In this document: positions 40,010 to 59,552 of the stretch, in pieces
Layout: every line of letters begins with the position of its first letter
Position numbering within the stretch: the stretch's first letter is position 1
Program-made: the position numbers and the translations under genes
Source of the DNA: Planctomycetota bacterium
GTDB taxonomy: Bacteria; Planctomycetota; UBA1135; UBA2386
Assembly: GCA_965223545.1 (NCBI GenBank)
Contig: OZ245006.1
Location: forward strand, 3,488,001-3,552,000
Direction of reading: 5' to 3'
Length of the DNA: 64,000 nt
The notes under the pieces: model-generated
Database searches by the model: none
The model's input: only the letters and a program-made list of their open reading frames with translations
Told to the model about the DNA's origin: nothing

Positions 40010-41689
40010 ATGCGCATTCGTCGCCTCACCGCGCACCTGTTGCTCTCGAGCACCGCGCTGCTCGCCTCCTCGTTCCTCGCGATCGCCCCGGCTCAGGCCT
40101 CGCCCGACACACCGGCGACCCCGACCACCGCCCAGCAAGAACCGCTGCTCGACGTGCTCGCCGCGCTCCAACGCCGCCGCGATGAGCTGGCCGCTGCCGA
40201 GCAGGAGCGATCGACGATCACCGATGAGGAGCGCCGGGCGGCCGCGAATGCCAAGGTGACGGAGCTCGAGAGCCAAGTCCTCGAACTCGAACGGCGCTTC
40301 GATGCGCTCGCCTCGGGCGTCGATGGCAGCGCGTTCGTCAAGACCACGCCGGATGACACGACTCTTGCGCAGGAGCTCGAGACGGTGCTGTTGCCACTCG
40401 TGCAGAAGCTCAAGGCGGCCACGAAAGAGCCACGCGAGATCGAGCATCTCAAACAAGAGGAGACTCGCGCCATCGAGAACCGGGACCTCGCCAAGCTAGC
40501 CATGGACCGGTTGGCGCAGCGCATGCGCGAAACGCGCAGCGAGCCGCTGCAGGCCGAGCTGCGCAGTCGGATCGAGACCTGGCGATCGCGCTACCAGGAA
40601 AACGACCAAACCGCGCGCGTGGCCCGGCTGGAGTACGATCGCCGCCTGGAGAACCAACGGCCGTTCCTCGAAGTTGCGGGCGAAGCCGCCGACGACTTCT
40701 TCCAAACGCGAGGACTCAACTTGCTGTTGGCGGCCGGCGCCTTCGTCGCTGCGCTGATCAGTCTACGGATGGTCGGGCGCGCGCTGCGGCGCGTCACTCG
40801 GCGAAAACGACAATCGGTGTACCGCCGCGCACTGGAGGTGCTGTGGAACACGATCACGGTCCTGGCCGCCTTCTTGGCGATGATGGCCGTCCTCTACTTC
40901 GCCAACGACTGGTTGGTCTTGCTGCTGGTGCTGATCTTCTTGGGCGGCCTCGGCTGGGCCAGCATCCAGCTCCTGCCCAAGATGTTCGAACAGGTGCGCG
41001 TGCTGCTCAACCTGGGTGGCATCCGCGAAGGCGAGCGCATGCTGTGGGAGGGTGTCCCTTATCAGATTGCTCATCTCGGAATGTACACCCAGCTGGAGAA
41101 CCCGGATCTCAGCAGCGGCGTGCTGCGCATTCCGATCCGCGACTTGATCGACAAGCACTCGCGGCCAATCGCGGCCGGCGAGCGCTGGTTTCCCTGCCGC
41201 GCGGGAGATTGGGTCTTGCTGGCCGACGACACGCGTGCGCGAGTCGAGATCCAGACCCCCGAGTTCATCCAGCTGCGGTTGCCCGGCGGGGGACCGAAGA
41301 CCTACGCGACCCCCGACTTCCTGGCCTTGGCGCCCAAGAACCTGTCCGGGGGGTTTCGCATCGAGCTGGTGTTCGGCGTCGACTACTCCCACCAGGCGAT
41401 CTGCACGACGGAGATCCCCAAGGCGATGCTGGCGCGCCTGCGGCGCGACTTGCCCGGCGTCGTGCCGGAGTCGGCCACCAAGAGCCTCACCGTCGAATTC
41501 ATGGCAGCCGCCGCATCGTCCCTGGATTACGAGATCCAGGCCGATTTCGACGGCTCGGTGGCCGAGCTGTACGAGCGCATCCAGTTCTCCTTGTCGCGCA
41601 TCTTGGTCGACGCCTGCAACGAGCACGGCTGGGTGATCCCCTTCCAGCAGTTGACCGTGCACCGAGCGATCACCGCGGCGGCCGAGTGA
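40010..41689 (+). CDS. MscS-like mechanosensitive channel family protein with a periplasmic coiled coil
   Basis: Signal peptide, coiled coil, 3 TMs, LLNLGGIREGER, WFPCRAGDWV, QTPEFIQL, FGVDYSHQ, SSLDY, IPFQQLTVH. Confidence 0.8.
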   Translation: MRIRRLTAHLLLSSTALLASSFLAIAPAQASPDTPATPTTAQQEPLLDVLAALQRRRDELAAAEQERSTITDEERRAAANAKVTELESQVLELERRFDALASGVDGSAFVKTTPDDTTLAQELETVLLPLVQKLKAATKEPREIEHLKQEETRAIENRDLAKLAMDRLAQRMRETRSEPLQAELRSRIETWRSRYQENDQTARVARLEYDRRLENQRPFLEVAGEAADDFFQTRGLNLLLAAGAFVAALISLRMVGRALRRVTRRKRQSVYRRALEVLWNTITVLAAFLAMMAVLYFANDWLVLLLVLIFLGGLGWASIQLLPKMFEQVRVLLNLGGIREGERMLWEGVPYQIAHLGMYTQLENPDLSSGVLRIPIRDLIDKHSRPIAAGERWFPCRAGDWVLLADDTRARVEIQTPEFIQLRLPGGGPKTYATPDFLALAPKNLSGGFRIELVFGVDYSHQAICTTEIPKAMLARLRRDLPGVVPESATKSLTVEFMAAAASSLDYEIQADFDGSVAELYERIQFSLSRILVDACNEHGWVIPFQQLTVHRAITAAAE

Positions 41690-41791
41690 CCCGCCGGCGC
41701 GACCTCCAAAGTCGGGCCGCAGGCGTTATTGTTAGTGGTGTCTGCAGTCCCACGTCTGCCCGCGTCCTCGAAACTCCTCAAGGGTCGTTGC

Positions 41792-42784
41792 ATGTTCGTC
41801 CGCTCTCTGATCCCGGCGCTGACTCTGCTCGCGACGGCGGCCCCCGGCACCGCACAGCGCGGTGACCCGCTGCCGCAGGTCGAGCTCGAAGGTTTCAGCC
41901 AGACGCCCGCCACGTCGCTCGATGACTATCGCGGACGGCTGCTGTTGCTCGAGTACTTCGCCTATTGGTGACGCCCGTGCGCCGCCTCGGTGCCGCACCT
42001 CAACGAACTCGAAGCCGAGTTCGGGAGCCGCGGGCTGAGCGTCGTCGGCGTGACCGGCGAGACCAAAGAAAAGACCGAGCCGTGGATCGAGAAGCACAAG
42101 GTGGGCTTCGCCTATGCGTACGACCCGGACAAGGCCCTGTTTCGCGGCCTCCGGCTGCGCGCCTATCCGAGCGCCGTGCTCGTCAGCCCGCGGGGCGAAG
42201 TGGTGTGGAAGGGCCACCCGATGGCGCTGACCAACAGCGAGATCGATCAACACCTGCGTTTCGCCTCGCGCATTCCCGTCGAGACCCGCGCCAAGATGCG
42301 CAGCTGGCCGGCGGCGGCGGCGAGCGTCGTCAAGCTGGTCGACAAGAACAAGCTCGCCAAGGCCCTCGACGAGGCCGAGGAGCTGGCGGCGGCGGACCCG
42401 GCGACGCCGGGAGTCGTCGACGACCTCACCGCGTACGTCGATGGCGTGCTCGGCGACTGCCGGGGCGCGCGAGACGCCGGCGATTTCTTGACTGCCTTGG
42501 AGACCGCGGAGGACTTCGACAAGGCTCTATCGGGGCATGCGCGCGGCGTCGCGTTCCAGGAGATCGTCAAGGAGATCCGCGGCGACAAGACCGCCGGTGC
42601 CGCGATCAAGACGCAGAAGAAGCTGCTCAAGCTCGGCGCCCTCATCGAGCAGACCTCCGCGAGCAAGCTGCCCGGACTGATCAAGACCCTCGACAAGATC
42701 GAAGGCGAGTACCGCGGCACCTTTGTCGGCAAACAGGCGCGCGCGCTGCTGACCCGAGCCAACCGCAAGCTGGTCCGCGGGTAG
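41792..42784 (+). CDS. Secreted TlpA/thioredoxin-like redoxin with a UxxC active site (probable selenoprotein; in-frame TGA at 41969-41971) and a C-terminal helical domain
   Basis: ORFs 41729-41971 and 41990-42784 are in the same frame and read SLDDYRGRLLLLEYFAYW-[TGA]-RPCAASVPHLNEL...GLSVVGV...AYPSAVLVSPRGEVVW. Confidence 0.85.
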
Positions 42785-42791
42785 CGGCCGG

Positions 42792-43673
42792 ATGGCGGCC
42801 GCCCTCGCCCTGCTCGCCGCCTACGCCACCCTGCACGGTGGCGCCGTGCTCTACACGTGGCGGCGCTGCGCGCAACGCGAGCCGTTCTGGCGCCACGCGC
42901 GCCGGCGGTCCGCCGTCTTGGCGCCGCTCAACGCCCTGATCTACGCGTGCTCCGCGCTGCCCGACCGCAGCGTCCACGCCGCCGCGTCAGTCCCCGGCGT
43001 GCGGGGACTGCGCGCTGGTTGGCGCATCGCGAAAGAAGAGGGCACCGCCCTCCTCGAGCGCGACGCGATCCGCCCGCCGGCCTGGACCAACGACGCCAAG
43101 ATCGCGGCCTTCCACGAGCGCGGTTGGCACCCGTACTACTTGCTCTGGCACGGGGACGTCCTGCCATCCGCGCAAGCGACCTGCCCGCGCACGGTGGAGC
43201 TACTGAGCGGCCTACCGCAGGTGCGCGGCGCGATGTTCGCAGTGCTGCGCCCCGGCGCCAGGCTCGAGCCGCACACCGATCCGTTCGCCGGCACCCTCCG
43301 CTGCCACGTCGGCCTGGGCATCCCGGCCGGAGCGGCCTGCTGGCTCGAGGTCGACGGCCAACGCCACACGTGGACCGAAGGCGAAGCGCTCGTCTTCGAC
43401 GAGACCTATCTGCACAGCGCCGCCAACCACACCAGCGATGCGCGGCTGGTGCTGCTGTGCGACGTGGAGCGACCGCTGCGCTACCGCTGGGCCACGGCCC
43501 TTCAGCGCGCGGCCCGCGCGCTGCTGATGAGCGTGGTCGCGGTGCAGAACGAGCCCGGCGACCCGGTGGGTTGGCCGGCGCGATTGGCGGGTCTGCTCGC
43601 CGGACCGCGCCGCGCAGGCGACCCGCGCCGTCAGCCCGCGCCCGCCTCCAACACCAAGTCCCGCGCGTCGTAG
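42792..43673 (+). CDS. Aspartyl/asparaginyl beta-hydroxylase family, LpxO-like Fe(II)/2OG dioxygenase
   Basis: APLNALIYACS, CPRTVELL, AMFAVL, HTDPFAGTLRCHVGL, FDETYLH, RLVLLCDVERP. Confidence 0.85.
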   Translation: MAAALALLAAYATLHGGAVLYTWRRCAQREPFWRHARRRSAVLAPLNALIYACSALPDRSVHAAASVPGVRGLRAGWRIAKEEGTALLERDAIRPPAWTNDAKIAAFHERGWHPYYLLWHGDVLPSAQATCPRTVELLSGLPQVRGAMFAVLRPGARLEPHTDPFAGTLRCHVGLGIPAGAACWLEVDGQRHTWTEGEALVFDETYLHSAANHTSDARLVLLCDVERPLRYRWATALQRAARALLMSVVAVQNEPGDPVGWPARLAGLLAGPRRAGDPRRQPAPASNTKSRAS

Positions 43674-59034: not shown

Positions 59035-59552
59035 TCCCCGCGCTCTGTCTGGCCCTCCACGTGCGATTGCGGTGCCGGCCAACGGCGCAAGCCGACCATC
59101 GATGGCAGCGGATCGCGCACCCGTTGTTGGGGACCTGGCTGGTCGCGCTCATCGCGGTCGGCCTGCTGGTCGCGGCGCGCCACATGGTGACCGGCGAGCT
59201 GCGGGTGGCGGAGTGGCTGGACGACGCGACCTTCCAAGGGCTGCTGGTGCTCTGGTTCATCACTCCGTTCGCCTGGAGCCGCAGCGCGGCCGCGGCGGCA
59301 AGCGCCGGCCTCGACAGCGCGCTGACCATGATCGTGTCCCTGGTCGTGCTCAAGGTGACGGTGGCATTGACCGGAATCGTCAGCAAGATCGTGTGGAAGA
59401 TCGTCGACTCGATCGTGCCGGTGGAGATTCCCGAGCTCGTGCGCGGGCTGTTCGACGTGGCACTGGCGGTCGGCGCGCAGCTCACCCTGTTCGTCGCCGT
59501 GCTCGGCTTCAGCTGGATGAAGGCCAGAGAGCAAGCTCGTACGGCGATGTGA
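58896..59552 (+). CDS. Hypothetical multi-TM membrane protein (or the C-terminal part of a frameshifted gene)
   Basis: About 6 hydrophobic helices. Confidence 0.6.
   Translation: MAKPMLLAALAAGAVTCAAAAVGVLPGAEDRSRAAAGLRFLLHPVVIPALCLALHVRLRCRPTAQADHRWQRIAHPLLGTWLVALIAVGLLVAARHMVTGELRVAEWLDDATFQGLLVLWFITPFAWSRSAAAAASAGLDSALTMIVSLVVLKVTVALTGIVSKIVWKIVDSIVPVEIPELVRGLFDVALAVGAQLTLFVAVLGFSWMKAREQARTAM

Follow-up and report, generated by a model that had tools for sequence, protein, structure and literature searches.

A probable selenocysteine codon in a predicted exported TlpA-like protein of Planctomycetota and a candidate non-canonical recoding signal

In the stretch of planctomycetal DNA analysed here (64,000 nucleotides, hereafter the window), an ORF tool calls two pieces, at 41,729-41,971 and 41,990-42,784, and the question raised by this locus is whether these are two genes, one broken gene, or one gene that is read through a stop codon. 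With respect to the DNA itself the answer is plain: both pieces lie in a single reading frame and are connected through a TGA. From 41,792 to 42,784 of the plus strand, a frame of 330 codons ending in TAG, backed by full-length homologues, contains a single in-frame stop, the TGA at 41,969-41,971 (residue 60, context YFAYW-U-RPC). In the homologue alignment this codon takes the place of the first Cys in WCxxC and is position 1 of U-R-P-C, likely Sec60, and the TGC at 41,978-41,980 codes for Cys63, likely the resolving cysteine, with a Cys in the same column, in an Ala-Cys-Pro context, in homologue L013. The earlier note on this DNA had proposed one frame whose sole interruption is a TGA at the nucleophilic Cys, and translation and homologue alignment agree with it; that standard annotation would split the gene holds as well, given that two ORFs are called and that the protein collection contains the 264-aa downstream piece alone (entry P0002). 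The Pfam AhpC-TSA match (E = 1.2e-18) covers residues 24-139 and crosses the TGA, GC3 is 0.83 upstream of it versus 0.90 downstream, and a putative Shine-Dalgarno-like AAGGG lies 7 nt upstream of the ATG (41,780-41,784, plus strand). The promoter search gave no match, and one terminator-like site was found on the opposite strand, at chance level.

Upstream of the gene (window 40,016-41,689) is a gene for a 550-aa membrane protein which by eye resembles a small mechanosensitive channel and which has no Pfam match, and 7 nt past the stop codon an Asp/Asn beta-hydroxylase gene begins (window 42,792-43,673). These two flanking genes are not kept beside the homologues, and neighbour clustering over 75 loci revealed no conserved gene neighbours, so that gene order offers no pointer to a substrate.

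Conservation of the TGA codon within the family

By a search with alignment A1, 126 of 151 genomes of the class and 119 of 301 genomes of the phylum were found to contain the family. After removal of 12 duplicates and of 8 loci without the motif from the 143 loci examined, the active-site codon of the remaining 123 distinct loci is TGA in 93, TGC in 23 and TGT in 7 cases, and in no case TAA or TAG, a tally which does not give frequencies since Cys loci were fetched on purpose. Cys stands in the TGA column, as the earlier note had anticipated for homologues. TGA counts within search matches are not equivalent to active-site counts because the TGA of one genome (G360) is terminal, and a recoded active site considered for three phylum matches with an inner TAG or TAA (L192-L194) was rejected, their stops being terminal too. 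Among the homologues, L020, L023, L026 and L036 carry an extra C-terminal C-x2-C-x6/7-C-x2-H tail resembling a small metal-binding finger, and L102, L107, L110, L194, L201, L203, L209 and L210 have lost the motif entirely or its first catalytic residue; these eight still match the family profile and are possibly redox-inactive paralogues.

With one exception, UGA is kept in relatives using Sec and Cys is found where the machinery is missing. The gene selA is present in 60 of 61 relatives, the exception being G025 (73% complete), which has the TGA without a selA match. Six of 60 chosen genomes of the phylum have no selA match; the active-site codon is TGC or TGT in the five loci that were fetched from them (L195, L198, L199, L205 and L211), and the sixth genome has a family match without an internal stop. 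In a FastTree phylogeny of 125 rows, calculated after masking of the catalytic column, 18 Sec/Cys changes were counted, and at least 11 exchanges within this one family are forced by well-supported branches; the changes are counted irrespective of their direction, long branches come together at two points of the tree, and for the P rows the Cys state is read from protein letters and not from codons. Sec-to-Cys changes are called rare outside FdhA and SelD in PMC13188914.

A nonsense mutation, a sequencing error or two separate genes would each be in keeping with the two ORFs obtained by standard gene calling, and also with the database matches: among the best 150 of 1.84 billion representatives, 100 with this single domain architecture were sorted, and 44 of these begin after the TGA, the other 56 being full-length and mostly carrying Cys. 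However, matches beginning after the active site are the pattern of a split Sec gene, the TGA is kept in 93 distinct loci down to approximately 21-41% protein identity and is never exchanged for TAA or TAG, and a split would cut the thioredoxin fold of the structure model at its active site. Furthermore, the TGA, for which the earlier note had wanted confirmation from reads, is carried unchanged by assembled contigs of sequencing runs, which here take the place of raw reads: a Logan contig of run X1, possibly the source sample, covers the whole stretch at depth 8, and one of run X4, a second sample of the same study, covers 41,600-42,822 at depth 390, both with 0 differences, and an assembly error is therefore unlikely. 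A 151-nt contig of run X5 from another study matches as well and ends 24 nt past the TGA, less than the 31 nt of the bridging rule of the tool. The chance that the TGA reflects any of these three causes is considered negligible.

Selenocysteine machinery and further selenoproteins of the genome

The genome (G000; 8.1 Mb, 70% G + C, 91% complete) contains all four components that the earlier note had named for Sec insertion, i.e. selA (E = 1e-114), selB (over cut-off), selD (with an in-frame TGA of its own) and one tRNA-Sec (74 bits), the Rfam model RF01852 supporting only the call at C1:7952888. It had also named a tRNA-Cys with a UCA anticodon as an alternative decoder, and at the default stringency of ARAGORN the tRNA-Sec is the sole tRNA with this anticodon; a looser run yields additional UCA calls among noise calls numbering in the hundreds. 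Since TGA is the main stop codon of the genome (2384 of 3069 scored ORF ends), there is no general reassignment of TGA. The acceptor stem of the tRNA-Sec (L006:1501-1600) has by eye seven pairs, with G opposite G at the eighth position. At 59,198-59,287 of the window, ARAGORN reports a 90-nt tRNA-Trp(CCA), possibly a spurious call within GC-rich coding sequence, and a normal 77-nt tRNA-Trp is encoded elsewhere.

Instead of Sec, Cys or Trp might be inserted at the UGA by a suppressor or near-cognate tRNA. tRNAs that read UGA as Cys have been described from other phyla, the ARAGORN calls for this genome include three tRNA-Cys and two tRNA-Trp, and the gene is devoid of a canonical SECIS (see below), all of which would suit such a readthrough. 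Against it, however, stand the default ARAGORN result, the Cys codon carried by the genomes without selA, and the active-site column itself, where none of the listed full-length homologues has a Trp. This reading therefore appears very improbable, and from the sequence comparisons the TGA is, with high confidence, predicted to be decoded as selenocysteine and the gene to encode a real selenoprotein. A systematic mis-annotation would thereby be corrected, since only a catalytically dead fragment is stored for a gene that occurs in most genomes of one class of Planctomycetota and in about 40% of those sampled in the phylum.

The gene is accompanied by 29 further TGA codons in 28 genes in which a family HMM spans the TGA, resulting in at least 29 genes with 30 TGA codons when it is included (loci L042-L081). 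The further Sec types comprise TlpA, Trx, BCP/Prx, AhpD, MsrA, deiodinase-like, SelW-like, ArsC, HMA, DUF3179, DsbD, SelD and FdhA. This number was obtained by a codon-model scan and subsequent HMM scans of 60 hand-picked candidates and is a lower bound with some weak matches; most of the last 20 of the 60 TGA candidates, and several others, turned out to be ordinary gene junctions. The review PMC13188914 gives 57-63 as the published upper bound of selenoproteins and states that aerobic bacteria rarely keep them, a statement with which at least 29 selenoprotein genes next to four COX1-family genes in one genome sit awkwardly.

Seven more probable Sec codons, several of them with strong hairpins, are located in proteins without a selenoprotein family model, namely L051, L052, L062, L071, L074, L081 and L091 (C1:3793782, minus strand; 492917, plus; 3168601, plus; 6151628, plus; 1762082, minus; 2993927, plus; and 3622532, minus, respectively). 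Their contexts are UPSC (in a carboxypeptidase-regulatory-like domain), NWUC (in an FG-GAP protein), GUTU (with two TGAs), GCTU, GGGU, GYTU and WLUMC. In addition, L067 (C1:716357, minus strand) has a TGA in a nucleotidyltransferase-like domain (AVCG-U-FAV), which may be a nonsense change or an odd selenoprotein.

Candidate recoding signals downstream of the TGA

Canonical hairpins were searched for with our own coding of the bSECIS rules given in PMC13188914, i.e. an apical loop 16-37 nt from the UGA, a G at loop position 1 or 2, a stem of at least 4 bp and an energy of at most -7.5 kcal/mol. This test is passed by 27 of the 29 other Sec codons of the genome, where synonymous shuffles would lead one to expect 12.2. 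Their loops, such as GGUC, AGUU and GUC, mostly lie at a distance of 18-26 nt from the UGA. The test is also passed by 19 of 74 family genes (7.5 expected); for the gene at 41,792-42,784 it yields no hairpin. According to PMC13326102, 87.4% of BSepDB entries have a canonical SECIS.

What is found in this gene is a long stem-loop at 41,986-42,039 (plus strand; +18 to +71, the U of UGA being +1), a candidate non-canonical SECIS suggested by pair probabilities (0.73-1.0), shuffles, covariation and slide controls. Its lower helix (41,986-41,996 with 42,030-42,039) starts 14-15 nt after the UGA, its upper helix of 8 bp (42,004-42,011 with 42,016-42,023) is closed by the apical loop AAGC (42,012-42,015), 40 nt after the UGA, and the upper hairpin is matched by none of 500 synonymous shuffles. 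As in the bSECIS model (Fig. 2A legend of PMC13188914), it is a stem-loop in coding sequence just 3' of the UGA; unlike in that model, where the loop lies 16-37 nt from the UGA, it has its more distant apical loop, no G in the first two loop positions, and two helices around a large internal loop, spanning about 54 nt.

Across the family, mean z of the segment +16 to +75 against synonymous shuffles is -3.05 in 29 discovery genes, -2.05 in 45 held-out genes and -1.69 in 18 genes from elsewhere in the phylum, versus about +0.2 to +0.35 in the next segment downstream. On repetition, held-out TGA genes gave -1.97 versus -0.42 for 28 Cys genes, with a nominal p of 4e-5, kin not being independent; most of the Cys controls belong to a subclade farther away. 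Among MFE folds, the lower helix is present in those of 18 of 45 TGA genes versus 0 of 28 Cys genes, its pair 19-70 ranking 4 of 2556 by MI-APC. The Gly codon at +64 to +66 is GGA or GGG in 29 of 45 held-out genes versus 24% gene-wide, a preference somewhat seen in the Cys controls too (9 of 26 versus 19%), and at pair 42-49 the Leu codon CTT goes with AAG and CTC with GAG (10/5 versus 2/13). In alignment A4, from the rows of which the structure was derived, 75% of cells are paired versus 30-53% on sliding, and 9 of 16 pairs change on both sides.

Other results are less marked. Upper-helix pairing is largely driven by the amino acids (5.89 of 8 pairs observed versus 5.59 expected in held-out genes), upper-helix pairs reach modest MI-APC ranks (32 of 2556 at best, and 1191 for pair 42-49), and only 17-18 of the 45 held-out genes fold into either helix. 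RNAalifold found no consensus structure for +1 to +54 or +1 to +75 on either alignment, and the conclusion of there being no SECIS at all, initially drawn from this, was dropped after the shuffle tests had shown excess structure. A search against Rfam gave no relevant match. A covariance model built from A4 was rejected as a separator of Sec from Cys loci, with 72 and 63 bits for the Cys loci L198 and L196 and 58-83 bits for TGA loci; it fails because sequence is scored along with structure.

The long stem-loop is taken as a real structure under selection, as indicated by these comparisons, and we lean slightly towards its being a functional SECIS. Sec insertion might, on the other hand, depend on an ordinary short hairpin near the UGA, either the CUCG hairpin proximal to it or a G-U loop forming transiently at +22/23. 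In that case the long stem-loop would be a by-product of protein constraint or act in mRNA stability or pausing. The proximal hairpin, at +9 to +30, has an energy of -12.1 kcal/mol which is reached by 4.4% of synonymous shuffles, G22-U23 is located where the canonical loops of the genome sit (spacing mostly 18-23), and both the 19 family genes passing the canonical rule and the negative RNAalifold result are in line with such a signal. However, there is no excess of structure in the family segments +4 to +45 (mean z +0.11/-0.29) and +13 to +48 (+0.03/-0.20), the loop of the proximal hairpin lacks a leading G and lies 14 nt from the UGA, the best hairpin is at a spacing of 38-41 in 36 of the 70 family genes having one, and the long fold is depleted in Cys genes. 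A proximal signal is thus considered rather unlikely.

If the long stem-loop is the signal, the family may, as a more tentative extension, use throughout the phylum a second structural class of bacterial SECIS, consisting of two helices with an apical loop about 40 nt from the UGA and without a leading G, alongside short hairpins with GGUC or AGUU loops in the same cell. Either SelB would then have to bind in a second mode, or the internal loop would have to be recognised, or an accessory factor would be needed. Such a class might account for some of the 12.6% of catalogued bacterial selenoprotein genes that lack a canonical SECIS. No description of a distal bacterial SECIS was found in the literature searched, which lay mostly outside subscription papers and supplements. 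In any case, the stem-loop offers a concrete candidate, amenable to mutation, for a non-canonical bacterial SECIS; PMC13188914 and PMC13326102 name such elements as an open problem. It comes with 27 canonical elements of the same genome as an internal control and with natural Cys versions.

Protein architecture, proposed function and relation to known systems

The structure model of the full protein has a pLDDT of 93.5. Residues 1-21 (41,792-41,854, plus strand) form a predicted cleavable signal peptide without lipobox, as judged by a heuristic n/h-region test and by low pLDDT of residues 1-20; of the 28 homologues that have a Met in range, 26 also pass this test, none with a lipobox, and the mature chain is without a hydrophobic helix. 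Export of the protein is therefore predicted with considerable confidence. Residues 22-159 (41,855-42,268, plus strand) make up a thioredoxin-fold domain of TlpA/ResA type, for which the Pfam models AhpC-TSA (PF00578), Redoxin (PF08534) and Thioredoxin_8 (PF13905) pass their cut-offs across the TGA and for which the best fold matches are DsbE-like 3gl3 (Z 20.4, rmsd 1.8, 135 residues aligned) and ResA 2f9s (Z 18.1). Pro126 (42,167-42,169, plus strand), at the cis-proline position of thioredoxins, is invariant in 36 of 36 rows of A1, and the family consensus of the active site in this alignment is W-U/C-G-P-C. The W-C-G-P-C type is the reducing motif of thioredoxin. ResA presumably has a Glu three residues after the second Cys; here residue 66 is Val, and this Glu is missing.

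The thioredoxin domain is followed by nine helices that form an all-helical C-terminal domain (residues 160-330; 42,269-42,781, plus strand), charged, basic (pI 9.3) and weakly TPR-like, with a pLDDT of 96.5 when folded alone. Foldseek found no match to it at E <= 0.001, the best having a Z of about 10 (at most 10.3) over 66 residues of the last three helices, and profile searches gave weak matches to CpoB (E = 0.005), YbgF (0.02), BamD (0.02) and consensus TPR proteins, with TPR weakly detected in a few members. The domain is best called TPR-like, and its lack of a clear family does not show a new fold. The exported 330-aa protein with TlpA fold and helical tail that the earlier note had outlined is thus supported by the predicted signal peptide, the fold matches and the model; of its tail of about 160 aa, the helical nature stands, and the length is corrected to about 170 aa.

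On these grounds the single gene with its likely Sec codon probably encodes a periplasmic U-x-x-C thioredoxin-fold enzyme predicted to reduce disulfides of the envelope. In the proposed sequence of events, the coding-sequence stem-loop at +18 to +71 would recruit SelB-GTP-Sec-tRNA, in place of the short G-loop hairpin of the other selenoproteins of the genome, and the protein would be exported and its signal peptide cleaved. The selenolate of Sec60 would then attack a disulfide or sulfenic acid of a client and Cys63 would resolve the mixed bond, the reductase direction being a reasonably probable assignment from motif and model. The Se-S bond might be reduced again by DsbD, a putative donor with about as much for it as against it; the only DsbD of the genome (L048; C1:4307002-4307631, minus strand) is a single DsbD_TM gene which leads into a U-V-N-C thioredoxin domain and is itself likely a selenoprotein. 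The helical domain, finally, might bind or hold client proteins, a putative role which we put forward with some reserve. The U-V-N-C codon of DsbD has a strong canonical hairpin, and a Sec-to-Sec electron relay in the envelope is possible.

The selenoprotein could also act as an envelope chaperedoxin, combining holdase activity with redox protection like CnoX/YbbN, or as a factor in peroxide repair, and not as a dedicated disulfide reductase. The succession of a thioredoxin domain and a helical, weakly TPR-like domain parallels the Trx-TPR layout of YbbN/CnoX (PMC10998233), and eight fetched homologues have lost the motif and yet keep homology, which suggests a scaffold role independent of redox activity. 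On the other hand, no CnoX/YbbN structure is among the listed fold or profile matches, the thioredoxin domain is of TlpA type, and a signal peptide is predicted here, whereas CnoX works with GroEL and DnaK. We regard such a role as unlikely and the envelope reductase as the preferred reading.

With respect to known systems, the protein shares with the ResA/TlpA/DsbE (CcmG) reductases (PDB 1su9, 1jfu, 3gl3) the fold (Z 15-20, rmsd 1.8-2.7), the predicted export, the W-x-x-x-C site and Pro126. It differs from them by Sec in place of Cys, by a predicted cleavable signal in place of a membrane anchor, by scores far off the NCBIfam cut-offs for ResA, TlpA and DsbE (58/170, 50/230 and 24/123 bits) and by the absence of cytochrome-c maturation genes beside the gene. 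CnoX/YbbN chaperedoxins are cytoplasmic and without export signal. Like these, the protein has a thioredoxin-fold domain in its N-terminal part and a helical, repeat-like domain behind it; unlike these, its domain is of TlpA type with Sec, it has a predicted signal peptide, and no CnoX match is among the listed results. NCBIfam NF041054 (ResA-like WAxxUGC) likewise describes an exported-type ResA-like (seleno)protein of similar length and matches over the thioredoxin domain (E = 2e-10), but with 40 bits versus a cut-off of 300, a UGC and not a UxxC motif, and a match ending at residue 168.

Selenoproteins with a UxxC thioredoxin fold, a known class as the earlier note had said, are catalogued in Table 1 of PMC13188914 as Prx-like thiol:disulfide oxidoreductase (PF00578), thiol-disulfide isomerase-like (cd02966) and Redoxin family protein (PF08534). 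The protein resembles them by matches to PF00578 and PF08534 over cut-off and by Sec in first position of the CxxC site; it differs by its signal peptide and 170-aa helical domain, an architecture not named among the entries in the accessible part of that table. No description of this architecture was found in the literature searched, a partial coverage to which the content of BSepDB and S9 Table of PMC4807772 are external, and members of the family may be filed in BSepDB under a generic name. Among earlier sources, deep-Sep is PMC12013277, and selenoproteins in Planctomycetes were noted before in PMC4807772. The selenoprotein class as such is known; what is new is the architecture, its spread and, above all, the atypical recoding signal.
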